Under the pieces are notes generated by a model. That model was given only the letters and a program-made list of their open reading frames with translations, was not told the DNA's origin and ran no database searches. This document shows positions 25,350 to 49,862 of a stretch of 60,631 bases of DNA, in pieces. The stretch spans positions 1 to 60,631 of the forward strand of contig JAEOSU010000097.1 of NCBI GenBank assembly GCA_016840165.1, given 5' to 3'. A program made the position numbers and the translations under genes. The stretch is from Promethearchaeota archaeon (lineage in GTDB: Archaea; Asgardarchaeota; Lokiarchaeia; Sigyniarchaeales; SOKP01). Position 1 is the first letter of the stretch. Every line of letters begins with the position of its first letter.

Positions 25350-26852
25350 TTATATATTTTTTTTAAGATTTTTCTTTTTAAATTCTGAATATTTAGCCAA
25401 AGCGTTAAAACACTTGACGGGCATATCCCATAGTTCAAAAACTGGAATGTTAGCTTTAATAAATTCTCTTACCCATGGATTATGATAACCTTGAGGACCA
25501 ATATAAAAAATGGGGACCCTTTTTTTCATTATAAGTCGTTGAATTGGTTTCAAATAAATATTCTTCATCATTTCATTGGAAATCTCAAATTCATCATAGG
25601 CTTTACCCCCAGAACTTTTAATAATATCTAAAACCTCTTCGAATCCAAATACAGCATACAATATTATTCCATCTAATTCTCCTGAATTAATTAATAATTT
25701 AGGAATTTTAATGTATAAATTATATTGATTGAATTGAAAAGTGAGATCTAAAGGATTATCAATATTCGCTACTTCGGGTACATATTTTTTTAATCTTAAT
25801 TTTAAATCATCTGAAAACTCGGGAACTTGCAAGCCCATCTTTTCAGCGGCTTTAGCCATCATCGCACCGCATCCTCCAGAATCAGTGATAATCCCTAATC
25901 TCTTTCCGTGAGGGATGATTCCACTCGAAAACGTTCTTAAATAATACATCCAATCTTTTATTGAAATGGTTGAAATAATGCCCGTATCTTGAAATACAGA
26001 CTCAAATATTCTATCATTTCCTGCGATTGCACCTGTATGACCTCTAATTGATCGTGTTGCAGCTTCAGTCCCTCCCGCATAAATCCCAATGATTGGTTTC
26101 TCGTTAATAACCTTTTTAGCAAGATTAATAAACTCCCTCCCTCTTTTTAGTTCTTCTATATAAATTCCAATAACGCTAGTTTGCGGATCATTCCTAAAAA
26201 AATCTAAAAAATCAACAGTATCAATATTATCTTCATTTCCAATTGACACTGCCTTTCCAATTTTAACGCCCATCTCTCTACATATCCAAAAAATATGGGA
26301 AGCAACCGTACCAGATTGGGCTATTATTGAAATATTACCTCTTTCTGGGGTTGCATAAATCCACATGGTGTTTAAACTAGTATCCTTATATTCAGGATAT
26401 CTATACCAAGAATTATATACCCCGAGACAATTAGGACCAATAAATCTAATGTCATATTTAGCTGCAATCTGAGCTACTTTCTTATTCAGGTCAACATTTC
26501 CGACTTCTCTAAATCCCCCAGAAGTTATTATAGCATACTTTATACCCTTTTGTCCACATTCCTCTAAAACTTGAGGCACAATTTTTGGTCGTAGAATTAT
26601 CAAGGCTAATTCAGGGATTTCTGATAATTCTAATACATTTTCATAAGCTTTTAAAGCTTGAATTTCTTTTAGTTTTGGATGTATCGGAAAAATCTTATTT
26701 TTTGGAAACCCACCAAAAATTATATTCCTAAGTTGCATTGCTCCCATTGTTGAGAGAAATTCATTGTTAGCTCCAAAAACACAAATACTTTCCGGATTTA
26801 AAAAAGGGTAAAGAAAATGTTTATTTAAAAGATTTTCCTTAAATTCTGTCAA
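25350..26852 (-). CDS. acdA: acyl-CoA synthetase (NDP-forming) alpha subunit
   Basis: CoA-binding fold, GPNCLG, AQSG, GHTGAIAG (phospho-His), NPLDL. Confidence 0.9.
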   Translation of the reverse strand: MTEFKENLLNKHFLYPFLNPESICVFGANNEFLSTMGAMQLRNIIFGGFPKNKIFPIHPKLKEIQALKAYENVLELSEIPELALIILRPKIVPQVLEECGQKGIKYAIITSGGFREVGNVDLNKKVAQIAAKYDIRFIGPNCLGVYNSWYRYPEYKDTSLNTMWIYATPERGNISIIAQSGTVASHIFWICREMGVKIGKAVSIGNEDNIDTVDFLDFFRNDPQTSVIGIYIEELKRGREFINLAKKVINEKPIIGIYAGGTEAATRSIRGHTGAIAGNDRIFESVFQDTGIISTISIKDWMYYLRTFSSGIIPHGKRLGIITDSGGCGAMMAKAAEKMGLQVPEFSDDLKLRLKKYVPEVANIDNPLDLTFQFNQYNLYIKIPKLLINSGELDGIILYAVFGFEEVLDIIKSSGGKAYDEFEISNEMMKNIYLKPIQRLIMKKRVPIFYIGPQGYHNPWVREFIKANIPVFELWDMPVKCFNALAKYSEFKKKNLKKNI

Positions 26853-26961
26853 TTTTCAAACCTATAAATGTGATTAATATTAAATTGGAAAATTATTATA
26901 ATAATTTAATTTTGATTTTTAATGATACTATATAACTTCTTAAAAATTATTTTTTACTCAT

Positions 26962-28359
26962 ATGTCCGTTAAATCAAACAGTTTAGACTTTTTTTTTAAT
27001 CCTAAAACAGTGGCAATTATTGGAGCATCTGAATCCTTGAAATTTGGATATACCATGACTAACTATCTTTTAAAATCTTCATTCAAAACATATCCAGTAA
27101 ATATAAGCAAAGAAAAGATTTTTGGATATAAAGCCTATAAAAGGATCTCTGATATTCCAGAACAAATAGAGCTAGCTATTATTATTGTGCCTAATGAAAA
27201 TGTACTAGAGGCTATAAAGGATTGTATAAAAAGCAATGTAAAAGGAATTATCATTGAAACTGCAGGTTTTGCAGAAACGGGAATAGAAAAATATGTCCAA
27301 ATTCAACATGAGATTGAGGAAATAGCTAAAACTGCTAATATCAGAATAATCGGTCCAAATTGTGTAGGAATTACTAATTTCAATAATAATTTCACAACCA
27401 CCGATGTAGAATTTGATAAACTGCTAGAAGGAGGCAAAATTTCGATTATTGCTCAATCTGGGGTGCTAGGGAACGTTGTTGTAGATTGGGCTTCAAGTCA
27501 AAAAGTTGCGTTTGCTAAATCAATAACCTTTGGTAATAAAGTAGATGTGGACGAAATTGATATGTTAGAGTATTTAGAAAATGATCCATATACAAAAGTT
27601 ATCACTCTTTACCTTGAAGGAGTTAAGAAAGGAAGAAAATTAATTGAAATTCTAAAACGAGTGACCAAACCTGTAATTGTATTAAAAAATGGACGGAGTA
27701 AAGCTGGTTTTAACGCGATTAAAAGTCATACTGGTTCAATAGCGGGGGATGATAAAATTTACGACGCAATCTTTAAACAACTCCCGGGTGTATTTAGAGT
27801 AGATAATTTTTACGAGATGTTTGATATTGCCCAAATATTCGCAACTCAACCATTACCTAATGGAAAAAATGTTGCAATTATAACTGCTTCTGGAAGTTTA
27901 GGTTCCTTAGCATGTGATCAAATTGAGCAAATTGGTTTAAATTTAGCTCCCTTAAAAAAATCGACTATAGAGCAAATGAAAAAAGATTCACCAAACTGGA
28001 CTTCTTTAAGAAATCCAATAGATCTAGGTCCTTCTGTATTTGCAACTTTCAAACCTGCTCTCACAGCGTTAATGAACGATGAGAATGTTCACGCAGTATT
28101 ATATATCTTCGCAGTTCCCCAAAAACCTTTAGAGACATTTTCTTTAACAATGATTCCCCAATTTCGACTCATAAATAAACTTGTAACCAAATTTAAAAAG
28201 CCAGTAACAATTTGTGTATTTGGATCACGCTGGACATTGGATTATCTCTTAGAAGAGTCACCAAAATATAATATTCCCATAATGACAAGAACAGATCACG
28301 CACTCAAAGGACTAAAAATGATGTACGATTTCAAAGCTATAAAAGAACGTAAAATTTGA
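26962..28359 (+). CDS. acdA: acyl-CoA synthetase (NDP-forming) alpha subunit
   Basis: PKTVAIIGAS, GPNCVG, AQSG, SHTGSIAG, NPIDL. Confidence 0.9.
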   Translation: MSVKSNSLDFFFNPKTVAIIGASESLKFGYTMTNYLLKSSFKTYPVNISKEKIFGYKAYKRISDIPEQIELAIIIVPNENVLEAIKDCIKSNVKGIIIETAGFAETGIEKYVQIQHEIEEIAKTANIRIIGPNCVGITNFNNNFTTTDVEFDKLLEGGKISIIAQSGVLGNVVVDWASSQKVAFAKSITFGNKVDVDEIDMLEYLENDPYTKVITLYLEGVKKGRKLIEILKRVTKPVIVLKNGRSKAGFNAIKSHTGSIAGDDKIYDAIFKQLPGVFRVDNFYEMFDIAQIFATQPLPNGKNVAIITASGSLGSLACDQIEQIGLNLAPLKKSTIEQMKKDSPNWTSLRNPIDLGPSVFATFKPALTALMNDENVHAVLYIFAVPQKPLETFSLTMIPQFRLINKLVTKFKKPVTICVFGSRWTLDYLLEESPKYNIPIMTRTDHALKGLKMMYDFKAIKERKI

Positions 28360-35136: not shown

Positions 35137-35592
35137 TTAATCGGGGGTCAACTCGTCTAAGTCGCTCAAGTCCAGCCCCGAATCTAAGGTGTCTGGAATG
35201 TCTGACAAAAATTCATCTAAAATCTCTTTCAATTCATCGCCCGATCTCTTTAAAATCAATCTAATTAATCCAATATTGATATCCGGATCGGAGATAAGGG
35301 TTAATACACCTTTAGGACCGCAGCTTGACGCAAAGATTTTCCCTCCTGAAAATTCACTAGTTACAATTTCTAAATCTCCAAGTTCTAAATTCTTTCCTTG
35401 TTCCTCGCTCGCACAGAATACAGCACTTGCGATTGCGCCAATACCATCAACATCGGCCGGAAAGTAGGAAAATTTTGAGACACTTGCGATAGTTAACCCG
35501 GTCCTATCGACCAAAATTACTTTTTTAATCCCGCTTTCCGATTTGATTATTTTCGATAAGATATTATCAAAACTTTTGGTATCAATAGACAT
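35137..35592 (-). CDS. Roadblock/LC7 (MglB/LAMTOR-like) protein
   Basis: VILVDRTGLTIAS, IGAIASAV..ASE..G..L.LG.L, INIGLIRL; acidic tail. Confidence 0.93.
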   Translation of the reverse strand: MSIDTKSFDNILSKIIKSESGIKKVILVDRTGLTIASVSKFSYFPADVDGIGAIASAVFCASEEQGKNLELGDLEIVTSEFSGGKIFASSCGPKGVLTLISDPDINIGLIRLILKRSGDELKEILDEFLSDIPDTLDSGLDLSDLDELTPD

Positions 35593-35778
35593 CTTCTACA
35601 CCAAATCTAGTTTACAATTGAATATAATATTATTAGAATTTTAACTTTAAAATTGTTATTATTATTAAAAAAGTATATCTATATAAAAATATGTATTTGA
35701 TAACGGGTTATCAATTTACGAGTGCGAAAAATAGGAAAAGTAGCCTTTTTGAAATTAATTTCTACCTTCAGAAACATC

Positions 35779-36999
35779 TTAAAGGAGATCATTATCCTTT
35801 ACAATTTTCATATAATGGTCGCGTTCACGTCTCAGTACTTTAAGCTCTTTTTTTAAATCTAAAATTTGATTTTTAACCTCACTATCCTCCTCTTGTTTTG
35901 AGGTTAGCTGCTCTTTTAATTCTTTGATTTCGAGTTTTAAGGAAGTGATGCTGTCTATATGGATAGAATTTTGATTTTTAACTTTCTCCAGCTCAGAGCT
36001 AAGTTTTTCTAAGGATTTTTCTAAAGCTTTAACTTCGGAGTTTAAACTGCGGTTTGCAACTCTTAGATCCTCTTTCTCTAGAATAACCTTTTCATATTCT
36101 TTTCCAACATCATCGAAACCATGTAATTTCTTTTGTAATTGTTGAACTTCTTGCTCTTTTTTTTCGAATTCTTCTTTTTTCTGTTCAATTTGCGAAGTTA
36201 AGCCTTTGTTCTCATTCATCAATTTAACATTATTTTCATTCAAATCGGCCATTTGTTGGCTCCAATTTTCTAATTTGATATATTGTTCACTGAGTTCTTT
36301 TTTAAGATTATCTCTTTCTGTGGTTAAAGTAGTATTATCTGATTTTATTTCAGTAAATTTATTGGTCAATTCTCTTATTTTACTGCTTTTCTCGTTCATC
36401 AGTGATTCTAAATTTGAAATTTTCTCTTGAAATTCTTTTATCTTTTCTGTTGTATCAGGAGGAGCTACTTCTTCTGTTTTTATATCAGTTCCTTCAGATT
36501 GTTTTTTTACCTCCTCTGCCTTTTCCTTCTCTTTCTTTTCAACTTCTTCTCTTTCAACTTTACTGGTCTCACCTTCAATTGTTTCATCCCAATATGGAGT
36601 GAGCTCACCATTCTTTAGCATACCATAATATCGACCAAATATATCATCAAAATTAAGTGCTTCTTTTTTTGGTAATAATTCATAAGCTATACGCCGCATC
36701 ATCCCCTCAAAATCGTCCATTAGAAAATCATCTTCAGATAGGAATACAATTATCGCATAATTCGGTTTTCCTACATAATGTCTAAAGGAAAATCCCGTGT
36801 AAAAGCTTGAAACCGTAATCTCTTCATTGATCTTCATTTCAAGATAATTTGGTTCCATTTTTCTGGCTAAATGTTGCTCTGATAGGGATTGAAGCAATTC
36901 AGGTGTTACTTTTAGAAACTCACAGATGTTAATAGGATATTGAGTGCTAATAACTAAGTTGCCATTTTCATTAAATTCTATTATAATAATTCCTTTCAA
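35779..36999 (-). CDS. longin-like domain followed by a long coiled coil
   Basis: MKGIIIIEFNENG....QYP...SFYTG N-terminal domain; ~220 aa of heptad repeats. Confidence 0.7.
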   Translation of the reverse strand: MKGIIIIEFNENGNLVISTQYPINICEFLKVTPELLQSLSEQHLARKMEPNYLEMKINEEITVSSFYTGFSFRHYVGKPNYAIIVFLSEDDFLMDDFEGMMRRIAYELLPKKEALNFDDIFGRYYGMLKNGELTPYWDETIEGETSKVEREEVEKKEKEKAEEVKKQSEGTDIKTEEVAPPDTTEKIKEFQEKISNLESLMNEKSSKIRELTNKFTEIKSDNTTLTTERDNLKKELSEQYIKLENWSQQMADLNENNVKLMNENKGLTSQIEQKKEEFEKKEQEVQQLQKKLHGFDDVGKEYEKVILEKEDLRVANRSLNSEVKALEKSLEKLSSELEKVKNQNSIHIDSITSLKLEIKELKEQLTSKQEEDSEVKNQILDLKKELKVLRRERDHYMKIVKDNDLL

Positions 37000-37247
37000 G
37001 ATCTTTCAAATACAAACGAATTTTTTCAAAGTTTTTATTGCGATTAATTATAATTTTTTTTTCTATATCTATTTTACTCAGACCAAATTTTATTACGAAT
37101 ACATCCACATAATTGGAATGGAGCATTAATGACAATATTTTTATCTCTATAATATCAATAATAACAATTTATTTCATTTAAGAAAAAATTATATGAAAAT
37201 TCATCTAAATATAATTAAGTTCCTTGAAGTAGTTTTAACATCTTAGT

Positions 37248-38120
37248 CTACTTTTCGTTTAAATTAGAAAATAGAAACATTCCATCAAGGATCCTATTTA
37301 TTTTAATTTGATTTTGATTTATATCATCGATGATTATATCTGATTTAAAGATCCTTGTTTTTTCAGTTAAAGAGAATTGATTTTTGTCTGATAATATCTC
37401 TACGAGGCCTAATTTCTTAAGCTGATTAAGATGGATTAAAGCATCTTTATGTTGGAGATTGAAATCATAAAATAGTACATTGATATTATATGTTTTATAA
37501 ACGTCATAGTTTATTAAGATCTCTAGATCTTTTCTTAATTCATTAATTTGGTCTACTCTATTCCCCAAATTTTTAATAGAGATAATTTTTCCTAAAATCT
37601 CAGCTACATAATCATAAGTAGTCAGAAAAAAATCGGCAGCAATAGAAGTTGGAAAAACAGGGATATTTTCATTTATTGCTAAATTAGTTTTAAGAAAGTC
37701 CTTAAATGCATTTATTTTATGATGTAATAAGATTTTATCAATTAAATCAACTTTATGAAAGAAGACTACTATTGAGGCTTTTTTTAAATTCATTTCTTTA
37801 TGTATATTTAGAAGTTTAAAAAAGAAATCTTGAATTTCTTTAATATACATATTAATATCAAATACACATAGTAATAAATTAGCATTCAAAAATATTTCTC
37901 GTTCATGAGAAAACCAGTTTTCATTTTCTTGGCCTGCTAAATCAAATACTCCTAATTCATAATTAAATAGAGTAAAAATTTTTGAATCAACGCCTCTTGT
38001 AGGTTCTATACTTGTATTCATTAATTTAAATGGACTCACCATTTCAAAAAAGACTTTTTTAATTGTACTTTTACCTACACCTGGAGGACCAATAATTATT
38101 ATTTTTTTCTTCTCGAACAT
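37248..38120 (-). CDS. Rag/Gtr-like small GTPase with a C-terminal winged helix
   Basis: G1 GPPGVGKS, G2 EPTRG, G3 DLAGQE, G4 HKVD, G5 TSI. Confidence 0.88.
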   Translation of the reverse strand: MFEKKKIIIIGPPGVGKSTIKKVFFEMVSPFKLMNTSIEPTRGVDSKIFTLFNYELGVFDLAGQENENWFSHEREIFLNANLLLCVFDINMYIKEIQDFFFKLLNIHKEMNLKKASIVVFFHKVDLIDKILLHHKINAFKDFLKTNLAINENIPVFPTSIAADFFLTTYDYVAEILGKIISIKNLGNRVDQINELRKDLEILINYDVYKTYNINVLFYDFNLQHKDALIHLNQLKKLGLVEILSDKNQFSLTEKTRIFKSDIIIDDINQNQIKINRILDGMFLFSNLNEK

Positions 38121-38139
38121 AAATCTTTTTTAAAAATGA

Positions 38140-38511
38140 TTAAGCAGAATTAATTAACTTATCAATTAAGGTTCTAAACTCTTTAACCCTTATGGGTTTT
38201 GAGATATATTCATTAAACCCGGCTTTAAGTATACGCTCTTTATCACCTTTCATTGCAAAGGACGTCACAGCAATTATTGGTATATTATTGAACTTATCAA
38301 TCGCTCTTAATTCTGTACAAATTTCAATTCCATTTATTACAGGTAATTGAATATCGAGAATGATTAAGTCTGGATCACCCGTTTTAATTAATTCTAACCC
38401 TAAATCTCCTTGAGTTTCTTCAAATAATTTGATATCTGGCATAATTTGGAATATAGCACGAAAAAGCTTCATATTCTTTTCATTATCTTCTACTAAATAT
38501 ACTTTTTTCAT
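38140..38511 (-). CDS. single-domain response regulator (DivK/CheY-like)
   Basis: VEDN, LIILDIQLP (phospho-Asp), VTSFAM, SKPI. Confidence 0.95.
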   Translation of the reverse strand: MKKVYLVEDNEKNMKLFRAIFQIMPDIKLFEETQGDLGLELIKTGDPDLIILDIQLPVINGIEICTELRAIDKFNNIPIIAVTSFAMKGDKERILKAGFNEYISKPIRVKEFRTLIDKLINSA

Positions 38512-38675
38512 TTTTGTAAGTCAATTCCTAAGTTTATGAATATTATATTATACTAGCTTAGTTAAAATTCCCCTTAATATTCCTATCTTTTTAGATATCT
38601 TTATATATATCATCTCTTATGCATTATTTAAGTTTAAGGATCTAACCAGAAGTATAATACCGAAAGGAGACAAAA

Positions 38676-39992
38676 ATGGTTATAGGTCTATTACTATTAA
38701 AATGGCATAATAAACTTGGTCCATTAATTGATTTAAAATATCCCATCGATGTTAAAATTTCAGATAGTCTGATAAATAAAGTCTATACAGCTTATTCTTT
38801 TCATGATGAGAAAAAAGCACAAGATTTTATGGAAATTTCTACCAACAATTTGATAGTTTTATCCTATTGTGATATCTCTCAGATACCAGAAAAGGGATAT
38901 GAAATTGCCCTAATAATATTGGAAGAGAAGAATAGAATAAGTCTAAATAAAATAAAACAACATTTTATGAAATTTTCTAAAGAGATTTTTCAACTCACTG
39001 AAGATAGTCGTGAAAATTATTTTAATAATAACTTAGATTATTTTTTCAAAAAATCTACTGCCAAAAAAGTCTTATTATTAGGTTGTGCTGGAACGGGTAA
39101 AACTAGTATCAAGAGGATAATATTTGAAGGAGCGGATCCAAAAGTCTTACTTCTAAATCCCCTTGAACCTACAAGAGGTATAAGTCCAAATGTTTACTCA
39201 TGGCTTGATTTAAAATTAGGTGTTTTTGATTCTTCAGGACAAGAATTAAGCTACCTATTAGCTAATGAAGAAGACAGTGATTTTATTTTAGCTTTTAAAA
39301 ACACAGACATCATTGTTTATGTAATAGATTATACACTATGGAACATAAAACATAATGAAATAGAAAATCATATCCAAAAGATCTCACAAATAATTCAAGC
39401 AAGTAATCTACAAACAAAACTGGTTTTATTTGTTCATAAAATAGATTTAATCGAAATGCATGATCATGACAAAGTAATAAATGAGTTAAAACATTATTTT
39501 CAAGGAAATTTTAATTTAGACGTTTACTTCACAAGTATTCATCCAGAATGGATTTATAGTTTATATAATGCATTTTATGACCTTTTAAGTAGTTTTTCTC
39601 AAGAAACTTTAAATTTGAGATCTATTTTAAAAGATCAAATTAAAGAAATCTCAAAAGCAACGGTTTTTATCACAAATTTGCAGGATTCTATTATTGTACA
39701 GAGTATGACTAACGATTTTAATACAAATATAATTAATCGCTCACATAAATTAATTGCTGAAATTAATGAAAATTTTGAGGATATGAGTCAGGAGGGAAGA
39801 ATTGACCATCTGATTCTTTCAAGTGAGGGAAATTTTAACATTATTATGAACAATTTAAATATGTCAAAATTTGGTCTTAAGTATATAATAATTCTTTCTG
39901 AGAGTTTATCAGCAAATAAATTGATATTACTGGTTGGCCAAATAAGATTACAACTTAAAGACTTCTACTATTTAGAGAAAAAGGTATCATAA
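38676..39992 (+). CDS. longin-like + Rag-like GTPase + Roadblock-like fusion protein
   Basis: N-terminus LLKWHNKLGPLIDLKYP; GCAGTGKT, EPTRG, DSSGQE, HKID, TSI; C-terminal alpha/beta domain. Confidence 0.82.
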   Translation: MVIGLLLLKWHNKLGPLIDLKYPIDVKISDSLINKVYTAYSFHDEKKAQDFMEISTNNLIVLSYCDISQIPEKGYEIALIILEEKNRISLNKIKQHFMKFSKEIFQLTEDSRENYFNNNLDYFFKKSTAKKVLLLGCAGTGKTSIKRIIFEGADPKVLLLNPLEPTRGISPNVYSWLDLKLGVFDSSGQELSYLLANEEDSDFILAFKNTDIIVYVIDYTLWNIKHNEIENHIQKISQIIQASNLQTKLVLFVHKIDLIEMHDHDKVINELKHYFQGNFNLDVYFTSIHPEWIYSLYNAFYDLLSSFSQETLNLRSILKDQIKEISKATVFITNLQDSIIVQSMTNDFNTNIINRSHKLIAEINENFEDMSQEGRIDHLILSSEGNFNIIMNNLNMSKFGLKYIIILSESLSANKLILLVGQIRLQLKDFYYLEKKVS

Positions 39993-39994
39993 TT

Positions 39995-41536
39995 TTGAGT
40001 AAAAAAATAATTTTTATAGGACCTTCGGGAGCAGGAAAAACCACTATTAGAAAGATCTTCTTCGAAGGAGAAAACTCTAAAAAACTTCTTGAATATGCTT
40101 TAGAACCCACGTATGGTGAAGAATCATTAATTTTGAGATTACCAGGTCTTAATGAAGATATTGGAATTTTTGATTTATCAGGCCAAGAAAATCATAGATG
40201 GTTAGATACTAATGAAAATGAAATTTTTATTGATTCAAAAATAATTATTGTGGTAATAGATATAAATACTGAATTTGACCTAATATCTGATTTTATCGAT
40301 AAAGTAGCTAAAGTTCGTGATGAATTATCTTCAAAATCTATGATTTACGTGCTTTTACACAAAATTGATTTAATTGATGCGAATGAATTAAAGAAATTAA
40401 AGATCAAATCAAAAAATTCATTTTCTGACAAAAAATTATTAAAAATAATGTTTACCAGTCTCAAAAAAAAATATCTTGTTAATACTTTTTCTGATTTCTT
40501 GGTAATAATGAAATCATGCTTACTTGAGGAAGATTCTGATAGTGCTTTAGAATTTAACGTCATTGATGAATCACTTAAAATTATATCAATAATTAAAAAA
40601 GAAATAACTATATCGAAAAAAAATTTAATAGAGAAGCTAAACCGACCAGAGAAATTAATATTATATTTATTAGAGAGTTTAATGAAAAAAAATCATATCA
40701 TTATTCAAAAGATTGAAAATAATGAAATTATAACGTTGACTGATTTTGGACGAGATTATTTCTCAAGAATTATTAACTCTTTTTCACCTATCATAGATGC
40801 AAATAGCGATCTAACCTACAACTCCCATGATGAGTCATTATTACTAGATAATATACCTTATTTTTTAGGGTTTATAATCTCTGATAAAGATGGGAGAACC
40901 TTACTTAACGCCGAATCTTCTGAAAGTATATTACATAAAATTTTATTTAGTATAAAAAAAGCTGATCCTACAACAATTTCCACAGATCTGGATCTAATTC
41001 CTATGTTTATAAGTGCATTAGAAAAATTTTCGATTGAATTAAATATTCATGATCTATCGGGATTTGATTTGTCAGGGAGTAATTTAACTTTATGTGTATT
41101 AAGTTATGATATATACAACGTTATCATATTTATGAATCCTGATGTAAATTTCAAACCTTTTGAAACTAGAATTCGGAATTACTTTAGCAATATCTTCGAG
41201 GAATATACACAATTGTTTAATAAGGCTCTCAAAACAGGACAAACTGATATATTATCACCTATAATAGAAGACGCTAAAAATTGGCTTGATAATTTAAATA
41301 AATCCTATAAAAGTATGGTAATAAATTTAGAAATCATTGATATAGATCATGCAAAATTGTTATATGAAAAAATCGATAACTTATATGATAACATTAACCA
41401 AAAGTTTAATATTACTCTGGATAAAATTAAAAAGCTCAAAGTAAATTTAATGAAAGCTATATTAGAAAAGGATTATGATGAGCTTAAAATTATCTCAAAT
41501 CATGCAAAGAACTTAAGCTTAGAATATAGTATATAG
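39995..41536 (+). CDS. Rag-like GTPase + winged helix + longin/Roadblock-like domain + helical tail
   Basis: GPSGAGKT, EPTYG, DLSGQE, HKID, TSL; wHTH ending ITLTDFG; FIISDKDGRTLL...LIPMFISALEKFSIEL. Confidence 0.82.
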   Translation: MSKKIIFIGPSGAGKTTIRKIFFEGENSKKLLEYALEPTYGEESLILRLPGLNEDIGIFDLSGQENHRWLDTNENEIFIDSKIIIVVIDINTEFDLISDFIDKVAKVRDELSSKSMIYVLLHKIDLIDANELKKLKIKSKNSFSDKKLLKIMFTSLKKKYLVNTFSDFLVIMKSCLLEEDSDSALEFNVIDESLKIISIIKKEITISKKNLIEKLNRPEKLILYLLESLMKKNHIIIQKIENNEIITLTDFGRDYFSRIINSFSPIIDANSDLTYNSHDESLLLDNIPYFLGFIISDKDGRTLLNAESSESILHKILFSIKKADPTTISTDLDLIPMFISALEKFSIELNIHDLSGFDLSGSNLTLCVLSYDIYNVIIFMNPDVNFKPFETRIRNYFSNIFEEYTQLFNKALKTGQTDILSPIIEDAKNWLDNLNKSYKSMVINLEIIDIDHAKLLYEKIDNLYDNINQKFNITLDKIKKLKVNLMKAILEKDYDELKIISNHAKNLSLEYSI

Positions 41537-41553
41537 GATACTCTATTAATTGA

Positions 41554-43620
41554 TTATTTAATTTTTTTCATTATTGAAAAGTAAAAAGTAGTCCCAACTC
41601 CCAATACACTAGAAAATTTGATTTCGCCTCCATGTAACTCAATCAATCGTTTAGTTAAAGATAAACCTAAACCCGTTCCGGGAACTGAGCGTACATATGT
41701 TGAATCTACTCTTTTGAAATCCTTAAATAATATTGGAAAGTCTTTTGTATCGATCCCTATACCCGTATCAAAGACTTCAAATTCCCATTTATCATATTTT
41801 TCAAATACTTTAAATGATATAGTGCCCTCAATAGTAAATTTTACAGCGTTACTAAATAAATTTAGTAAAATTTCTTTGAATTTTAGAGGATCTGCTTCCA
41901 TCTCTATCTCTTTATCCAGTCCTTTTACTTTAAATTCTATCTTTTTCTTACCTACAAAAGGTTTTAGGCTTGATATAGTTTGCTCGACCATAGAATTCAG
42001 AGAAAAACTTTTTACATTTAGCGTTATCTGCCCAGATTCAATTTTAGAAATATTCAGAATATTTTTTATCATATCGAATTGATCTTCTGCTGAGATTTTT
42101 ATATCATTAACAAAATCTCTTTGCTCCTCCGTTAATGGACCATATACTTCTTCTAATAGTAACTCTGTAAATCCGATAATAGCATTTAATGGAGTTCTGA
42201 GCTCATGAGACATAGTTGACATAAATTCCGTCTTAAACTGGGATGTCTTTAGAATTCGGTCTAAATATTTCTTTTGTTGTTGAAAAGCAAAATTCAAATC
42301 GATTGTTCGAGTTTCAACCTCTCGCTCTAATTTTTCTTTGAATTCAAGTTCGAGAAGTTCCCGTTTCTTCTTTTCATTAATATTTTGGAAAAGAAGTTGT
42401 AAAAATATATTTTCTTCGTGGTTAATAACAGAAGCTTGCACTTCTAGCCAAATCTTATTTTTCAATTTGTCTAGGACTTGTATTTCTATGGGTTTAGGGA
42501 AATCCTTCTTGAGAAAAGCTTGGAAAGTATTTTTATAAAAATGTTTTAATTCAAATGGGAATAATGTATTAAATTCCTCAAGTGATTTACCAATTAAGAA
42601 ACTTTTTTCATATCCAAATACATTCTGAGTAGATTTATTTGCATCAACAATAATTCCTTTAAAATCAATAATGAGTATAGCATTTGGAGAATTTTCAAAT
42701 AGATTTTTATATTTTAACTCAACCCACTTACGTTTTTCAATATTGGTGAGAACGCATACCAAATTATTATTTGTATTTGTAAATAACTCAAAGATCCTGC
42801 ATTCAAATTGATGCCAATGACCTTCTTTATTTTTAAGTCTAATCTCTAATGAATTTTCATTATTATGTGACTCCTGATAGATTGCGTTTTCAATTTTATC
42901 AAAATCGTCATGATGAAGGATGCTTAAAAAGGAAAATCCAATTAGATCTTCTGATCTATACCCGAGATATTTCATAAGGGAATTTTCATTAACATTTTTA
43001 ATGATCTTGTTTTTAGTCATAGAAATAAGGATATCATTAGAAAATTGAGCAAATTTATTAAGCTTTATTTCTAAAATCTCCTTTTCTTTAAGTAAATCTA
43101 TATTCTCAAGGATCTTAGATATAATCAAAGATATTAGTTTGATATTTCCTAAACTTTCCTCAAATATTTTCTCAGAAGTATTTAATGATATTAATCCAAT
43201 ATAACCAATTAATCCTTTTTTTGAATAAATTGGAAAGGCAAAAAAAAATCGAATATTTTTCAAGATTAATAGCTCTTCGATTGATCTTGGGTTTGTTCTA
43301 TATTTATTTTCTAAATGTAATTGTACTATAGAATTATTTTTAAGATGATTATAAAACCATGGATATATATTTAAATCCAACTCATCTGGGAATAGAGAAT
43401 CTTTATTAAATTTTTCTAAAGCAACATAATGAACAAATTTAATCGATTTAAGATCTTCATTAATTAAAGAAATAAAGGAATAATCGAATTTACACATTTC
43501 ACATAATAATTTAAGGATTAGGGATAAATTCTTAATATTATCTGATTCATCTATAATATCCAAATATCTTTCGATGAATGAACTATTATTTAAATCCTTG
43601 CTCGAAATTTTTTCTAACAT
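41554..43620 (-). CDS. cytoplasmic GAF-PAS-PAS histidine kinase
   Basis: H-box MSHELRTPLNAIIGF, N-box NLFSNAVKFT, DTGIGI, GTGLGL; no TM helix. Confidence 0.95.
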   Translation of the reverse strand: MLEKISSKDLNNSSFIERYLDIIDESDNIKNLSLILKLLCEMCKFDYSFISLINEDLKSIKFVHYVALEKFNKDSLFPDELDLNIYPWFYNHLKNNSIVQLHLENKYRTNPRSIEELLILKNIRFFFAFPIYSKKGLIGYIGLISLNTSEKIFEESLGNIKLISLIISKILENIDLLKEKEILEIKLNKFAQFSNDILISMTKNKIIKNVNENSLMKYLGYRSEDLIGFSFLSILHHDDFDKIENAIYQESHNNENSLEIRLKNKEGHWHQFECRIFELFTNTNNNLVCVLTNIEKRKWVELKYKNLFENSPNAILIIDFKGIIVDANKSTQNVFGYEKSFLIGKSLEEFNTLFPFELKHFYKNTFQAFLKKDFPKPIEIQVLDKLKNKIWLEVQASVINHEENIFLQLLFQNINEKKKRELLELEFKEKLEREVETRTIDLNFAFQQQKKYLDRILKTSQFKTEFMSTMSHELRTPLNAIIGFTELLLEEVYGPLTEEQRDFVNDIKISAEDQFDMIKNILNISKIESGQITLNVKSFSLNSMVEQTISSLKPFVGKKKIEFKVKGLDKEIEMEADPLKFKEILLNLFSNAVKFTIEGTISFKVFEKYDKWEFEVFDTGIGIDTKDFPILFKDFKRVDSTYVRSVPGTGLGLSLTKRLIELHGGEIKFSSVLGVGTTFYFSIMKKIK

Positions 43621-43670
43621 TTTTTTTTAAAGTTTATTCTTTTATTGATTTAAATTTCAACATATTATTA

Positions 43671-46586
43671 TTAAAGAGACCTGAGAAAATCATGAATAGG
43701 GTCAGTTATACTCTTATATTTCTTTGGAATTGTAAAGATGAATGTTGAACCTGCACCTAACTCACTCTCGAAGATAATTATACCTCCATGCAAGTTTATT
43801 ATTCGTTTTGTAAGCGCTAAACCTAAACCAGATCCTGCGACTGACTCAACATATGCTGATTTTACTCTTTGAAAATCTTTAAATATTTTATCAAAGTCCT
43901 TTTTTGCTATTCCTATTCCTGTATCTTTGATTTTAAAAGTCCAATAATCAGCATCTTCCGAAAATTCAAGGATGATCTTTCCTTCTATTGTAAATTTTAC
44001 AGCATTTCCTATTAAATTATACAAAATTTGTTTTAATTTAACGCGATCAGCTTTAATTATTCTATTTTTTTCAATAAATTTGTATTCAATCTCTATATTT
44101 TTCTTATGAGTTAAAGCTTTAAATGTAGAAATTACATTTTCAATTAAATTATATAAATTGAATTTCTCAATGTTTATAGATAATTCTCCAGATTCAATTT
44201 TAGATATGTCTAAAATTCTTGTTATCATGTCTAGTAAATGATGGGAAGAATCTTGAATATCTGATATAAATTCTAACTGACTTTTATTCATTTTTCCATA
44301 TGACTCTTCTAGAAGTAAATCTGTAAATCCAATAATAGCATTTAATGGTGTCCGCAATTCATGAGACATAGAAGCTAAGAATTCTGTTTTAAATTGAGAT
44401 GTCTTTGCTATATGGTCTAAAAATTTCTTTTGATTTTTTAAAGCTTCATTTAGCTCATTTGTTCTTAAGACAACTTCATTTTCTAAGGATTCGTTAAACT
44501 TTTTTTGTAATTCATCGGCTTTTTTTCTTTCTGAAATATCTCTTATGATAGCTTGGAGAAAATATACTTTTCCATGTTTTTGACGATTCAAAGAAATTTC
44601 TGCATCAAATAGAGTTCCATCATTTTTAATATGTTGCCATGTGAAATTGAGGAGTTCACCATTTAATCCTCTTTTAATATAATCTAAAGCTAGATCTTTT
44701 GACTTATATCCATTTGCCTGATAAAGTGGGGAGAGATCCCAAGGAGATACACCGATAAAATCTGATTTAGAATTAAAACCATACATTTTCACAGCCATTT
44801 TATTCGCATCTATTATTTTATCTTTATCGAGTAGGAATATCGCGTCTGTTGCTCCATCAAAAACATTACGATACTTCTTTTCTGAATCTATTAATTCGAG
44901 TTCGACTCGTTTTTTCTGTGAAATATCCTGCAGTATAACTTGAATAAGTGATATTTTATTAATTGATATTAGAGAAGCGTATAATCTTACCCAGTTCAAT
45001 TTGAAATTATCGCTGAGCACAGGAATATCGATTGGAGTTATAGAATCATTCCTTAACAACTCTTTTAATTTTTCCTGGAATAAGGGCAATTTTTCCTTTC
45101 GAATTAAGTTCAAATCTATGATATTTTTTCCAATAATATCACTTTTTTTAACAGCAAAAGAATCACATACTTTTTTATTAACATCAACGATGATACCTTT
45201 AAAATCTAATAGAATTATCATTAATGGAGCTGTTTTAAAAAGATCCTTATATCTCCTTTCCGATTCTATTAATTTATCTTCAGTACGCTTTCGTTCTAAT
45301 GCATTGGCTATGATTTGAGAACAAAATTGTAACAGTGTTCTGTCATTAAAATTCCATTTACGTCGTTTTATTTCTAAATCAAATCCAATAAACCCAATTA
45401 AGTCATCATTTTTCAATATTGGACAGGAAAGTGTACCAATTATTTTATTTTTAATTAAATCTTGTTTAAAATTTTCTGCTTCGGCTGGTATATCCGCTAT
45501 ATTGTTTATCTCAATATATTGTCTATTTTTTAGGTGTTTTATTACCCATGGATATTTATTGATTGGTACTTTATTATAATAATTAACATGAGAGTCAATT
45601 CCCTCTTTACACCACTCATAAATATAATCAAATTTTAATAGATCCTTATCAAAAAGAAAAAGGTATACTCTATCAATATTTCGTTCTATACCTATGTCTC
45701 TTAAAGTGTAATACAACACATTATCAAAATCGAAATTTCCAATAAAACGGGATGAGATTGAGGTTACTAATTTTTCAAAACTTATAGTTTCACTAATAAT
45801 CCTATCTTTCAATTTACGTTCAGAGATATCCCTAACTACTACTACCGCATTCCATTTCCCATTTAAGAAAACAGAAGAAATACGGAGTTCAATGGGAATT
45901 AATTCACCATCTTTCCTTAATGCTTCCACTTCTATATATTTCCCAACTATATCTTTATTCCCAATTTTTAATAAAGATTTAATACTATTTTGAAATCCTT
46001 CATTATAATCAGATGTAAATATTTTATGAAATTTTTCCCCAATAATTTCTTCTCTGTAATATCCAAATATAAGATGGGCAGCTTTATTCCAGTATACTAT
46101 TTTCCCAGTATCATCAATTTGAATTACACCTTCATGAATTGAAGAATTTATTAATTCAATATTGAAAGTTTCCTCTTTTTTTTTAAATAAGTATTGATTT
46201 TTTACTTTACTTATAGTTCCAATAAATTTTATATCTGTTCGGGTATCTTGCTTTATGATATAACCAATGTCTTGGATTTGAAGAAAAGTACTATTATCAA
46301 TTTTGACTCTGTATTTGATATTATAATTATCGTAATTTTTACAAGATGAGAGGATAGTTTTTTTCACATAAATCTGATCTTCAGGGTGGATTAACTCTAA
46401 CCAGCTATTAAAGGTGTTATCTATTGATTTATTAATATCACACCTAAAAAATTCGTTTATTGGTCCATGAAATTTATATGTTTTCAGTTGAGTATCAAAT
46501 TCATATAATAGATGATCGACGTAGCTTTCGTAATCTTTATTTATATCGTTAGAGGATTCCGAATAATTACTTGATTGACCATACAT
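43671..46586 (-). CDS. cytoplasmic PAS-PAS-GAF-PAS-PAS histidine kinase
   Basis: IHPED and RDISERK PAS/PAC motifs; MSHELRTPLNAIIGF, NLIGNAVKFT, DTGIGI, GSGLGL. Confidence 0.95.
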   Translation of the reverse strand: MYGQSSNYSESSNDINKDYESYVDHLLYEFDTQLKTYKFHGPINEFFRCDINKSIDNTFNSWLELIHPEDQIYVKKTILSSCKNYDNYNIKYRVKIDNSTFLQIQDIGYIIKQDTRTDIKFIGTISKVKNQYLFKKKEETFNIELINSSIHEGVIQIDDTGKIVYWNKAAHLIFGYYREEIIGEKFHKIFTSDYNEGFQNSIKSLLKIGNKDIVGKYIEVEALRKDGELIPIELRISSVFLNGKWNAVVVVRDISERKLKDRIISETISFEKLVTSISSRFIGNFDFDNVLYYTLRDIGIERNIDRVYLFLFDKDLLKFDYIYEWCKEGIDSHVNYYNKVPINKYPWVIKHLKNRQYIEINNIADIPAEAENFKQDLIKNKIIGTLSCPILKNDDLIGFIGFDLEIKRRKWNFNDRTLLQFCSQIIANALERKRTEDKLIESERRYKDLFKTAPLMIILLDFKGIIVDVNKKVCDSFAVKKSDIIGKNIIDLNLIRKEKLPLFQEKLKELLRNDSITPIDIPVLSDNFKLNWVRLYASLISINKISLIQVILQDISQKKRVELELIDSEKKYRNVFDGATDAIFLLDKDKIIDANKMAVKMYGFNSKSDFIGVSPWDLSPLYQANGYKSKDLALDYIKRGLNGELLNFTWQHIKNDGTLFDAEISLNRQKHGKVYFLQAIIRDISERKKADELQKKFNESLENEVVLRTNELNEALKNQKKFLDHIAKTSQFKTEFLASMSHELRTPLNAIIGFTDLLLEESYGKMNKSQLEFISDIQDSSHHLLDMITRILDISKIESGELSINIEKFNLYNLIENVISTFKALTHKKNIEIEYKFIEKNRIIKADRVKLKQILYNLIGNAVKFTIEGKIILEFSEDADYWTFKIKDTGIGIAKKDFDKIFKDFQRVKSAYVESVAGSGLGLALTKRIINLHGGIIIFESELGAGSTFIFTIPKKYKSITDPIHDFLRSL

Positions 46587-46618
46587 TATCTTCCAAGATA
46601 TAATTTAATTGATAATAT

Positions 46619-47485
46619 TTAGGTATTGAATTCATTCAAAATTAGGAAAAAAAAGAACGTATCAAAACCTAAATTTTCCTCTAAATCTCCTTTTTTTCGT
46701 ATATTTTCTAGACCAAATTTAAAAAAATAGGCACTATCCGATAAAACAAAAGCATCCATATTATTCATGCTTTTGATCAATCCCTTTCTCTCCATATCTA
46801 TAATGCGGGATAATAGCCTTTCTTCCTTAATATTGAGTTTAACTGCTAATTTCTCAACATAAATCTGTTTATCTTCAATAGCACATAATATTGAATTGAA
46901 TTCAGCCATTTCATTTCCCTGGGATGGAATCCCTTCATAGGGAATAATACTCTTTAAAAGTTTATACAACACTCTGAAAGTATAGTAATAATTTTCCTTC
47001 GTAATTGATGTTTGAAATATTTTAAAATTGGCTCCTCGAGGGTGTTGTTTGGTCATAAATTCGCAGATTGCTTTAATCTTACGTTTAGCATACGATTGAC
47101 TTACTAAATCTATTTTATGCATAAATGCTACAATTTTACACGATTTTAAATTGAGATCTATTTGGATTTGATAGATATTTAAAAGAAACTGAATAATTGA
47201 TTCCAATGAATTATTTATATCAAAGATACAAAGGATCATGTTTGAATCATTAAAAATTGACTTATCCTCATTAGATAACCATAAATCATTTTCTTGCCCT
47301 GCTAAATCGAAAATTCCTAATTTAGAGTCCAATAAAACATAATTTGTTGAATTAAGCCCTCTTGAGGGATCCAATGGATTTTTTAGAAGAGAAATTGGGC
47401 TATATTTCTCAAAAAATGTTTTCTTTATTGAGGTTTTTCCGGTCCCTGGAGGTCCTATTAAAACTATCTTTTTACTAGACATCAT
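46619..47485 (-). CDS. Rag/Gtr-like small GTPase with a C-terminal winged helix (paralogue of 37248-38120)
   Basis: GPPGTGKT, DPSRG, DLAGQE, HKID, TSI; VEKLAVKLNI...MERKGLI wHTH. Confidence 0.88.
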   Translation of the reverse strand: MMSSKKIVLIGPPGTGKTSIKKTFFEKYSPISLLKNPLDPSRGLNSTNYVLLDSKLGIFDLAGQENDLWLSNEDKSIFNDSNMILCIFDINNSLESIIQFLLNIYQIQIDLNLKSCKIVAFMHKIDLVSQSYAKRKIKAICEFMTKQHPRGANFKIFQTSITKENYYYTFRVLYKLLKSIIPYEGIPSQGNEMAEFNSILCAIEDKQIYVEKLAVKLNIKEERLLSRIIDMERKGLIKSMNNMDAFVLSDSAYFFKFGLENIRKKGDLEENLGFDTFFFFLILNEFNT

Positions 47486-47501
47486 ATATCTAATTATTCT
47501 C

Positions 47502-48191
47502 CTATTTAATTGATGAGGACATAGGTTCTTTAAGCGCTTCGATTATATCAGCACAAGAGTCAAGCATCATTTCAATATAACTTAAAATATCTTCTTGGGA
47601 TACACATCCACCTAGATTAATCTGTTCCTTAATTATATCACAAAATCCTTGGATTGTATTAACACCACTTCGAATTTGTAAATTAATTGATTCAAGGGGT
47701 AATACTTCTCCTTTCTTCATATAAATCTCACTTACGTCTTCAAAAAATTTCTCAAATGCTGCTTCATTGTCAGATAATACCAGATTGATATCTAATTTAT
47801 GAAAGATCATACCAATTCTTTTTAAATGTAATATAGGGATGAGTGGATAAGCAACATCACGTAAAATTATAATAGCATAAAGCTGTTTTCCTCCTCTCGC
47901 ATTTGGATCCTGAATCTCGATCTTATATACTTGAGCATAGAATTGGTTGAAATCTAAAATTACAAATTTATTCTTTGTGTTAAGTGCGTCTCTTAATAAG
48001 TTCCGAATAAAGATTAAATCCTTTAATGCAATAGATGAATACAACGATCTTGGACCTAAGATATGATCATATTTTCCTATTATAATAACAAATGGGTATT
48101 TATCTAAAGCTTCCTTGAATTGAAAATATGGTTCCTTGGTATTATCAACCAAATTACGACCTAGCGAATCTTTTCTAATTGAATTTACCAT
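47502..48191 (-). CDS. folliculin/uDENN-like longin domain fused to a His-less HisKA (pseudo-DHp) domain
   Basis: YDHILGPRSL and IQDPNARGGKQLYAIII; the C-terminal SINLQIRSGVNTIQGFCDII aligns without gaps to SMSHELRTPLNAIIGFTDLL of the nearby kinase. Confidence 0.72.
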   Translation of the reverse strand: MVNSIRKDSLGRNLVDNTKEPYFQFKEALDKYPFVIIIGKYDHILGPRSLYSSIALKDLIFIRNLLRDALNTKNKFVILDFNQFYAQVYKIEIQDPNARGGKQLYAIIILRDVAYPLIPILHLKRIGMIFHKLDINLVLSDNEAAFEKFFEDVSEIYMKKGEVLPLESINLQIRSGVNTIQGFCDIIKEQINLGGCVSQEDILSYIEMMLDSCADIIEALKEPMSSSIK

Positions 48192-48389
48192 TATCTTGAT
48201 TAAAATCCTAATTAAAGAATATGTGGAAATAGATTTTTGTTATAAAGTTTTAATAACTTTTGTACCAATAATATTAATTTGCATATTTAATATTAACTAT
48301 AATAGGGTATTTTGTTTGATTGACACACAAAAGAATAATTTGTGTTCATAATTCTATAAATTTATATAATTTAAGTTTATTAGTTATTC

Positions 48390-49862
48390 ATGTCAGAATC
48401 ATCAAAAATAATCGTTAAATATTTTTGTGATAGATTTTTAAATATTGATTATTATCCGACTTCCCTTAAAGCGATACTTGATTTAGAGCTTAACTTTTTG
48501 AGAGGAATCAACAACGAAGATATTAAAAGGTTTTCCAAACTAGATATATTCACTTTACGAGACCTATCTGGAGTCCAAGTAGAAGATCTTCAGAAGAAAG
48601 CAAGTAAAGTAAACCTTGACCTCACAACCTTTAAAAATGCTATTATTGCCGCATATTTAATAGCTAACTCGTGGAATAAAAGAAAAATGTACATGAAAAA
48701 GCCAAAAATGAAGGTTGTTATTTCAGGTTTAGACTATGCGGGGAAAACCTCTCTTATTAATCGACTTATAAATGATTATAATTACAATGATATGATAAAC
48801 CTTGAACCAACTGTGGGTGCAAATGTAGAGGAGTATCAATCAGAACGTTTAGACCTGGTTTTATGGGATTTAGGAGGCCAAAAAGACCATATCAATGAAT
48901 ATTTAGCTTCACCTGAAAGATTCTTTGTTCATGTAGACGTAATGATTTTTGTCGTTGATTCGCAAGATGATATTCGATATGATGAAGCGTTGCAGTATCT
49001 AAATGACCTTATAGACATTTTAGGGTTTTTGAATGAATCTCCATATATAGTTATTTTACTTAATAAAGCCGATTCTGATGTAATAAAAGATCCCGATTTT
49101 CAAATTAAATTGGAATATTTAATGGATAGAATTTCAAATATCTTTATGAAAAGTGAAACCCCTTGGAACTTTGAAATGATACCAACTAGTATTTATAATT
49201 ACTATTCTTCTGAGCCTGAAATTGCCAAAAGCATTAAAAGTATCTTTTCGAAGGAGAAGGAAATGCTTGATACTGGAAAATTGCTTCCTGACATCAACGA
49301 TAAGTTACAGAAAATCTTAGATGTAAATTTGAAATTGATGGATAAAGTTGTGGTGGAACTCAATGAAGTTAGGAGAATATTACACCAATTTACCCCTTCT
49401 GATATATCTCAATCACTTTTTTCAATCCCTTTCGAAAAAGTACCTATTGATTTCATATCAAATGAAGATTTTAGAGGAGAACAAAAAAAGGAAAAGCATA
49501 AGAAGAAAAGGGGGTCAGCAAGTAAGACAGTTAGCCAGAAGAAGAAATTTGGACCCCCAAAAAGGTTGGAAAAATTAGAGAAACCTGCTGAACTGGTAAA
49601 TAATTCTGAAGAGACTAAGAAAATTACAAAGGATCAGATAATTGAAGCTAAATCAAAACTTTCCACAGAAATTTCACAAAAAGAAGACATAAGCAAACCT
49701 CCTACAGCACCTAAACCAAATGATATTATGTTGAATATGCTTAAACCACCACCTCCACCTAAGATCACATCTAATTTAGAATCAGGACACGAAAATGTAA
49801 GAACCCAAATAATTACTGAATTAAAAGATATGTTTATAAAAAGAGGTTTAGTAACAAGATAA
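48390..49862 (+). CDS. Arf-like small GTPase with an N-terminal HhH-like domain and a Pro-rich C-terminal tail
   Basis: GLDYAGKT, PTVGANVE, WDLGGQ, FVVDS.D..R, LLNKAD; tail contains KPPPPPK. Confidence 0.88.
   Translation: MSESSKIIVKYFCDRFLNIDYYPTSLKAILDLELNFLRGINNEDIKRFSKLDIFTLRDLSGVQVEDLQKKASKVNLDLTTFKNAIIAAYLIANSWNKRKMYMKKPKMKVVISGLDYAGKTSLINRLINDYNYNDMINLEPTVGANVEEYQSERLDLVLWDLGGQKDHINEYLASPERFFVHVDVMIFVVDSQDDIRYDEALQYLNDLIDILGFLNESPYIVILLNKADSDVIKDPDFQIKLEYLMDRISNIFMKSETPWNFEMIPTSIYNYYSSEPEIAKSIKSIFSKEKEMLDTGKLLPDINDKLQKILDVNLKLMDKVVVELNEVRRILHQFTPSDISQSLFSIPFEKVPIDFISNEDFRGEQKKEKHKKKRGSASKTVSQKKKFGPPKRLEKLEKPAELVNNSEETKKITKDQIIEAKSKLSTEISQKEDISKPPTAPKPNDIMLNMLKPPPPPKITSNLESGHENVRTQIITELKDMFIKRGLVTR

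Follow-up and report, generated by a model that had tools for sequence, protein, structure and literature searches.

The 60,631-nucleotide stretch analysed here (the window; positions 1 to 60,631 of contig JAEOSU010000097.1, assembly GCA_016840165.1) comes from a Loki-type Asgard archaeon of the Promethearchaeota and has a G + C content of ∼30 per cent. On its reverse strand, at 47502..48191, lies an open reading frame (ORF) that translates to 229 amino acids and that combines a longin domain with a hairpin resembling the HisKA domain of histidine kinases. The gene stands in a run (35137–49862) that also encodes a Roadblock protein, a coiled-coil protein, several GTPases, a receiver, and two PAS kinases, and its product is a plausible candidate for a link between two-component signaling and Rag/Arf GTPase signaling.

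At E ≤ 1e-3 the protein has 257 homologues, none of them named, and those with a source label are proteins from metagenome-assembled genomes (MAGs) of Promethearchaeota, Lokiarchaeota, or Odinarchaeota, each annotated as 'hypothetical'; a phmmer comparison of the whole protein with PDB sequences gave chance-level matches only. An AlphaFold2 model built on a 34-row alignment (mean predicted local distance difference test score, pLDDT, of 78) places a longin topology ahead of a helical hairpin. Its N-terminal elements are strands at residues 35–42 and 46–52, a helix at 59–70, strands at 76–80, 84–94, and 102–112, and helices at 120–131 and 143–158; two C-terminal helices follow at 164–192 and 199–221, and the chain ends at residue 229, eight residues past the second of them. 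A first-pass annotation, made from the DNA letters alone, had already pointed to this ORF and to the motifs YDHILGPRSL and DPNARGGKQLYAIII within it, both of which are present, and the translation confirms its placement of Arg99 at codon 47895–47897.

The longin domain and its candidate arginine finger

Eukaryotic nutrient sensing is under the control of longin GTPase-activating proteins (GAPs) for Rag and Arf GTPases, among them folliculin (FLCN), GATOR1, and C9orf72–SMCR8. Catalytic arginine fingers in this class include Arg78 of NPRL2 and Arg147 of SMCR8. The longin domain of the 229-residue protein (residues ∼33–160; 47712..48095, reverse strand) was delimited from the AlphaFold2 model, from fold comparison with VIA-align and from a search of the ESM Atlas by shape. 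When model residues ∼31–162 were compared with solved structures by VIA-align, the top match was NPRL2 in GATOR1 (Z 12.2–12.7, root-mean-square deviation (rmsd) 3.0 over 131–134 residues), followed by the Lokiarchaeal Roadblock-Longin 8yqg (Z 12.1), folliculin (Z 11.2–11.7, rmsd 2.8 over 123–129 residues), and yeast Npr2 (Z 11.5), with the longins of SNAREs, adaptin-sigma, TRAPP, and DENN proteins at Z 8–10.

Foldseek placed GATOR1 and FLCN chains at E ∼1e-4 when given the 229-residue model, and the Atlas shape search returned a Heimdall cluster, 23 per cent of whose members carry Pfam Folliculin, together with eukaryotic NPRL2, SMCR8, and Npr2p clusters. The feature search of the same Atlas, which uses a protein-language representation, gave scores of 0.85–0.88, under the meaningful level, with one cluster that had NPR2 on 19 per cent of its members. 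At the level of Pfam, Folliculin (PF11704) covers residues 76–114, Arg99 included, at E 7e-4 and recurs at E ≤ 0.1 in 15 of 21 diverse family members, and the scan of the 229-residue protein gave no match to NPR2 (PF06218). The folliculin-like longin that the first-pass annotation had read at the N-terminus, and that it expected Foldseek to recover, is thus supported by the fold, with NPRL2 and FLCN nearest, and by a Pfam Folliculin match below threshold.

Together with the longin fold, the protein carries the GP turn and a candidate finger arginine, the signature motifs of the eukaryotic longin GAPs. Gly46-Pro47 (48051..48056, reverse strand), recognized from its conservation and from the published motif, forms a turn preceding the second strand, and PMC12290439 (Traffic 2025) defines this 'GP motif' as a feature particular to GAP longins. 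Arg99 (47895..47897, reverse strand), the candidate arginine finger by conservation and position, sits in the hairpin loop between strands 84–94 and 102–112; the catalytic finger that FLCN presents to RagC is Arg164 (PMC9473554). Across the conservation set of 120 listed homologues (59–100 per cent identity), G46, P47, R99, and G100 are invariant, and in a further set of eleven distant representatives the arginine is retained by nine; the conservation on which the first-pass annotation had staked its putative finger is therefore complete among the listed homologues. From fold, loop position, and motif, Arg99 may be the equivalent of the FLCN or NPRL2 finger, a correspondence with FLCN Arg164 that we infer because the sequence profiles reach no FLCN or NPRL2 chain and so provide no residue-level alignment.

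Elsewhere in the same genome, at 249148–249555 on the forward strand of contig C30 (locus L011), the longin half of the family profile matches once more (E 5.5e-5, over positions 15–141 of the profile). This match sits within an open frame of 1138 residues, which encodes a large protein bearing a longin domain of folliculin type.

A hairpin without the phospho-acceptor histidine

The two C-terminal helices make up a hairpin (residues 164–221; 47529..47702, reverse strand), delimited from the model helices and from sequence profiles, that resembles the dimerization and histidine phosphotransfer (DHp) domain of HisKA kinases. Residues 166–217 align without gaps to residues 737–788 of a 971-residue kinase encoded nearby (29 per cent identity over 52 residues, E 0.007 as a single comparison), and His742 of that kinase falls opposite Leu171, whose codon (47679..47681, reverse strand) marks the phospho-acceptor position by this alignment; a neighboring 688-residue kinase gives a comparable ungapped match (E 0.003). 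A C-terminal profile made from 19 family members (A3) goes beyond pairwise chance and matches the DHp domains 7n0e (E 7.9e-5), 7z8n (9.6e-4), and 4jas (0.018) in the PDB, histidine-kinase DHp domains being its sole significant matches there, with both helices covered and the histidine opposite position 171. Another family profile (A2), searched against the genome, matched the HisKA regions of both neighboring kinases (a neighboring kinase at 2.9e-5), and positions 161–216 of the full-length family profile (A1) match P0143, a protein with a six-fold HisKA repeat, at 4.3e-12. Pfam HisKA (PF00512) gave sub-threshold matches only, in 5 of the 21 family members.

Modeled alone, the hairpin reached a pLDDT of 86, and its closest structures were the DHp domains of HK853, SrrB, KinB, and WalK, with template-modeling (TM) scores of 0.6–0.75 and rmsd 1.4–3.0 (for HK853, TM 0.71–0.75, rmsd 1.4–1.9, Foldseek E ≥ 0.46). 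Foldseek with the hairpin alone returned no match at E ≤ 0.001, and the kinase DHp domains that head its output are no more than suggestive. For an element this short the Foldseek E-values fall short of significance, so that the HisKA homology of the hairpin rests on the sequence profiles, and by these the C-terminal domain is derived from a HisKA dimerization hairpin. The first-pass annotation fared well on this domain: its gapless alignment of residues 168–187 (SINLQIRSGVNTIQGFCDII) to the kinase H-box, with Leu171 at the phospho-histidine, is reproduced by pairwise and profile alignments, and the second DHp-like helix and missing ATPase domain that it described are seen in the helix at 199–221 and the chain end at 229. 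It also expected HisKA to be recognized by fold, and DHp rows do rank first in Foldseek, at E-values that are not significant.

Position 171 is leucine in 80 and methionine in 40 of the 120 listed homologues and histidine in none, as the first-pass annotation had supposed for the orthologues, and the residues that follow read Q-I-R-S-G here versus E-L-R-T-P in the kinases. No HATPase_c domain was matched in the 229-residue protein by Pfam, nor does the model leave room for one. Lacking both a phosphorylatable histidine and an ATPase domain, the protein cannot be a kinase or a phosphotransferase, and it is not a DivL-type pseudokinase either.

One could still imagine that the hairpin docks a receiver-only regulator as a phosphatase or sink, as DHp domains do when they dephosphorylate a partner, with the longin serving solely as a sensor or localization module. 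Helix 1 just below the histidine is the receiver-docking surface of HisKA kinases and is the best-conserved part of the hairpin here, and receiver-only genes do occur in the cluster, as with the 123-residue response regulator at 38140..38511 on the reverse strand (Pfam Response_reg 5.2e-24) and in the related loci L003, L004, and L008. In the hairpin, however, Q-I-R-S stands where the phosphatase motif of HisKA domains has E/D-x-x-T/N behind the histidine, and no receiver gene is consistently adjacent, which makes such a role very improbable. The possibility of a decayed kinase remnant was rejected as well, given the extreme conservation of residues and an exhaustive search that gave no full-length longin–kinase relatives.

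Other DHp modules without an ATPase domain also occur. The metagenomic P0143 (556 residues; Pfam HisKA 1.6e-37) consists of six tandem HisKA hairpins behind a Gly/Ala-rich hydrophobic stretch, and with Asn or Lys at the phospho-acceptor position of all six repeats, and His in none, it amounts to an array of dead DHp modules. In the related clusters L004 (787–1650, reverse strand) and L006 (5271–6137, reverse strand), proteins of ∼288 residues carry a receiver and then a HisKA-like segment, to which the pseudo-DHp profile gives 17 bits; with no ATPase domain behind it, this is a further DHp arrangement of the kind within these clusters.

The exhaustive search compared A1 with 1.8 billion representatives and returned only 33 at E ≤ 1e-3. 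A sample of 251 genomes from across the phylum yielded the longin–hairpin gene in 25; within its own family 23 of 54 genomes have it, in a sister family one of five does, and none of the 192 genomes sampled elsewhere in the phylum yielded it. It is always single-copy, in its own genome too, and is patchy even inside its own genus (7 of 21 genomes). Four distant relatives of ∼195–205 residues (P0129, P0132, P0146, and P0148) keep a histidine at the H-box column; P0129 and P0132 have this histidine and no longin arginine, and P0146 and P0148 have both. H-box histidine and longin arginine partly trade places across subfamilies, and the histidine-bearing relatives hint, at the level of sequence, at an ancestor whose hairpin could be phosphorylated. 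In P0131 and P0133 (∼390 residues) a PAS domain precedes the longin; these two and a further gene (G129, contig C258, 698–1273) are PAS–longin variants in which the C-terminal hairpin is degenerate and without the conserved helix-1 motif.

Gene neighborhood and companion GTPases

Downstream of the longin–hairpin gene, after a 16-nucleotide gap that contains AGGAG upstream of the GTPase start, comes a 288-residue Rag-like GTPase (46619..47485; Pfam Gtr1_RagA 1.2e-15), and beyond it lie the 971-residue PAS/GAF histidine kinase (43671..46586; Pfam PAS, GAF, HisKA, and HATPase_c) and the 688-residue PAS histidine kinase (41554..43620; Pfam PAS, HisKA, and HATPase_c), all on the reverse strand. On the other side, across a shared intergenic region of 198 nucleotides, a 490-residue Arf/Rag-like GTPase is transcribed divergently (48390..49862, forward strand; Pfam Arf 1.5e-23, Gtr1_RagA 8.5e-21). 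Convergent with the kinase operon is a pair of multidomain Rag-like GTPases of 438 and 513 residues (38676..41536, forward strand, with the two genes at 38676–39992 and 39995–41536; Pfam Gtr1_RagA). The remaining genes of the run, again on the reverse strand, are a 290-residue Rag-like GTPase (37248..38120), which is a paralogue of the 288-residue one, a 406-residue coiled-coil protein (35779..36999), and, adjoining it at the edge of the GTPase–kinase cluster, a Roadblock/LC7 protein (35137..35592) that also matches the LAMTOR3-type MAPKK1_Int family (6.5e-7). The 288-residue GTPase has a DLAGQE motif whose Gln64 does not vary across 35 homologues, and its C-terminus has weak matches to winged-helix-type families (DDRGK, NirD/L HTH).

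The window was compared with seven relatives at 57–80 per cent identity, giving eight loci. A PAS–HisKA–HATPase kinase lies downstream on the same strand in all eight, a ∼490-residue Arf/Rag GTPase lies divergently upstream in six and a Rag pair of ∼435 and ∼510 residues is nearby in six. The divergent ∼490-residue GTPase is thus a steadier companion than the 288-residue one.

An alternative would be that the protein regulates kinases and is no GAP at all. A GTP-bound Rag/Arf-like GTPase would dock on the longin, and the dead hairpin would intercalate with or cap a kinase DHp, switching the neighboring kinases on or off, such that information would flow from the GTPase to the phosphorelay. The link to the kinase, present at every locus, is tighter than that to any single GTPase; the hairpin falls in the same HisKA sub-class as the neighboring kinases; the PAS-fused P0131 and P0133 resemble kinase sensor modules without the kinase; and most longins are platforms or parts of guanine nucleotide exchange factors, not GAPs (PMC10933270). 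An effector needs no finger arginine, however, and the strict conservation of the GP turn and of Arg99, both marks of the GAP class, leads us to consider this direction of signaling unlikely.

Co-occurrence across genomes also bears on the choice of GTPase. Matches to the 490-residue GTPase form two groups, orthologues (E < 1e-100, 46–78 per cent identity) and paralogues (∼1e-48 or weaker, ∼30 per cent identity), and the longin gene is present in 17 of the 18 genomes with such an orthologue and in 7 of the 28 without. A strict two-way co-occurrence was predicted and failed in one direction, the longin gene being present in three of five further genomes that have no 490-residue orthologue; and because related genomes are not independent, the association is to be taken as a tendency only. 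One genome (G180) has, at 26110–27173 on the reverse strand of contig C207, fragments of a 490-residue GTPase orthologue (52 and 43 per cent identity) interrupted by five in-frame TAA codons; this copy looks to be decaying, and the longin gene was not found in that genome.

For the 288-residue GTPase, a complex of its G domain (35-row alignment) with residues 18–229 of the longin–hairpin protein, GTP, and Mg was predicted. The interaction prediction score from aligned errors (ipSAE) was 0.32 (0.41, 0.00, and 0.32 in the three runs), as compared with 0.07 for the best of three controls, and the verdict was one of weak support. In calibration, 58 of 80 solved complexes and 2 of 110 mismatched pairs attained the ipSAE mark applied, and values of 0.60 or less took in just 7 of the 80 solved complexes and both of the passing mismatches; the present run differs from that calibration in its custom alignments and its ligand. 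In addition, since FLCN–RagC and GATOR1–RagA have already been solved, a pass may reflect memory or likeness and not binding. The prediction accordingly shifts the odds that the 288-residue GTPase is bound only slightly.

Possible partners of the hairpin and the proposed adaptor

Scored against the eleven HisKA domains of its own genome, the pseudo-DHp profile gave 33.2 bits for the 971-residue kinase, 28.5 bits for the 688-residue kinase and at most 14.5 bits for the other nine; the cluster kinases of related loci mostly score 20–32 bits. This pattern fits the hairpin and the neighboring kinases being drawn from the same HisKA sub-class, and mixed hairpin–kinase bundles are conceivable on that basis. 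A simpler arrangement would have the hairpin as a homodimerization module only, pairing identical longins in place of FNIP, NPRL3, or C9orf72, such that the protein acts on its GTPase and leaves the kinases untouched, with the clustering of the genes reflecting shared regulation or a shared pathway. DHp domains are by default homodimeric four-helix bundles in HisKA kinases, no conserved second longin gene was found beside the longin–hairpin gene in the eight loci compared, the solved Lokiarchaeal longin 8yqg is a dimer by its title, and longin GAPs operate as longin pairs (PMC12290439). Against this, helix 1 is conserved well past the needs of a coiled-coil core (R174, T179, I180, G182, and F183 are invariant in the 120 listed homologues, and N178 is kept in 118), the closest resemblance of the hairpin is to the DHp of the very kinases next to it, and a kinase gene follows in all eight loci; pure homodimerization is therefore possible but rather doubtful.

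The explanation that we prefer, while holding it tentatively and with somewhat less than even confidence, is that the 229-residue protein is a soluble two-domain adaptor of one family-level lineage within the Loki-type (Promethearchaeia) Asgard archaea. Judged from its motifs and its predicted structure, GTPase regulation would be its likeliest role, probably as a GAP that is coupled to the kinase operon via the dead hairpin. The longin domain would bind one of the cluster GTPases and supply Arg99 to speed GTP hydrolysis, much as FLCN Arg164 does on RagC, and the likeliest clients would be the divergent ∼490-residue Arf/Rag-like GTPase or, where present, the ∼290-residue GTPase. The hairpin would build a four-helix bundle, its partner being either a second copy or a DHp from one of the co-transcribed kinases; the former would yield a two-longin platform such as eukaryotic GAPs build with a partner subunit, and the latter would place the GAP under kinase control. 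A more specific version, which we regard as improbable, is that the hairpin and the co-transcribed PAS kinases form mixed four-helix bundles through which a bacterial-type sensor kinase directly gates a folliculin-type GAP on a Rag/Arf-like GTPase. If true, such a bundle would hard-wire a two-component system to a precursor, older than TOR, of the Rag switch by which eukaryotes sense nutrients.

A number of observations weigh against this adaptor. GAP-class longins lead other longins by 2–3 Z units only, the Pfam Folliculin match of 19.8 bits falls short of its curated cut-off of 23.3 bits, and neither the longin-domain profile (A4) nor the arginine-loop profile (A6) reached an FLCN, NPRL2, or SMCR8 chain when searched against PDB sequences. 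The two distant subfamilies represented by P0129 and P0132 are without the arginine, and the second longin subunit and the DENN or other C-terminal domain that eukaryotic longin GAPs need are absent here. On the side of the partners, the three complex runs disagree (shared contacts at least 0 per cent, partner pLDDT at least 79), seven genomes have the longin gene and no close orthologue of the 490-residue GTPase, and the high scores of the two adjacent kinases are only partly specific, since the HisKA domains of these two are also the closest to consensus in the genome. Lastly, only three of the eight loci, those of the window and of the two relatives nearest to it, have the ∼290-residue GTPase placed between longin gene and kinase, for which reason it is best seen as a lineage-specific insertion. 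The first-pass proposal of a GAP for the adjacent Rag-like GTPase has weaker backing than the two domain assignments.

Since most of them stand outside operons, Asgard GTPases are difficult to pair with their regulators (PMC10933270), and PMC12290439 asks if Asgard GAP longins have Arf-related or Rag GTPases of Asgard archaea as their clients. A folliculin/NPRL2-class longin with a catalytic-looking arginine in a conserved operon supplies named candidate GTPases and kinases. Among the papers searched, none joined Asgard, histidine kinase, longin, and two-component, and nothing was found on the structures of LokiRagM (9m28) or of Roadblock-Longin (8yqg). The fusion of longins with two-component domains is nevertheless already known in kind, since Liu et al. 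(2020; bioRxiv 10.1101/2020.10.19.343400) describe NPRL2-like longins fused in this way, and the 229-residue protein is a variant of it. If the hairpin does couple to the kinases, it would offer a route from a prokaryotic phosphorelay into a eukaryote-type GTPase switch, which Liu et al. propose in general terms.

Several known systems invite comparison. DivL is a pseudo-histidine kinase of Caulobacter that binds DivK~P. It likewise has a HisKA-type DHp with the histidine replaced and signals by binding and not by phosphotransfer, and the DivL structure 4q20 is a weak match of the C-terminal profile (E 0.53). DivL, however, keeps its ATPase, or catalytic and ATP-binding (CA), domain and has Tyr at the histidine position, whereas the 229-residue protein has Leu or Met there, no CA domain, and a longin N-terminus; the analogy drawn by the first-pass annotation is accordingly a loose one. 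MglB, the bacterial Roadblock GAP of MglA, is like it a prokaryotic member of the Roadblock/longin superfamily, a dimer that regulates a small Ras-like GTPase (PMC10933270), but it has a Roadblock fold without an arginine finger and is not among the top structural matches of the model. The Asgard FLCN/SMCR8-type and NPRL2-like longins (10.1101/2020.10.19.343400; PMC12290439) share the phylum, the GP motif and arginine, and the idea of a wiring to two-component systems, and the text of those papers mentions neither a histidine-less, ATPase-less HisKA hairpin nor such an operon or such GTPase companions.

The closest likenesses are to the eukaryotic GAPs themselves. NPRL2/Npr2, the subunit of GATOR1/SEACIT that acts as the GAP of RagA/B, provides the best structural match and shape matches in the Atlas, at ∼10 per cent identity, but its C-terminal domain and its partners NPRL3 and DEPDC5 have no counterpart in the 229-residue protein. 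The longin of FLCN in FLCN–FNIP2, the GAP of RagC/D (6NZD, 6ULG, and 8DHB), differs in its attached DENN domain and its FNIP partner, in place of which the 229-residue protein has a kinase-type hairpin; identity is ∼16–18 per cent, and for the archaeal protein GAP activity is something that we infer. What the two have in common is the longin fold, the GP turn, a conserved arginine, the sub-threshold overlap with Pfam Folliculin, and an association with Rag-like GTPases, whose genes lie next to that of the 229-residue protein.

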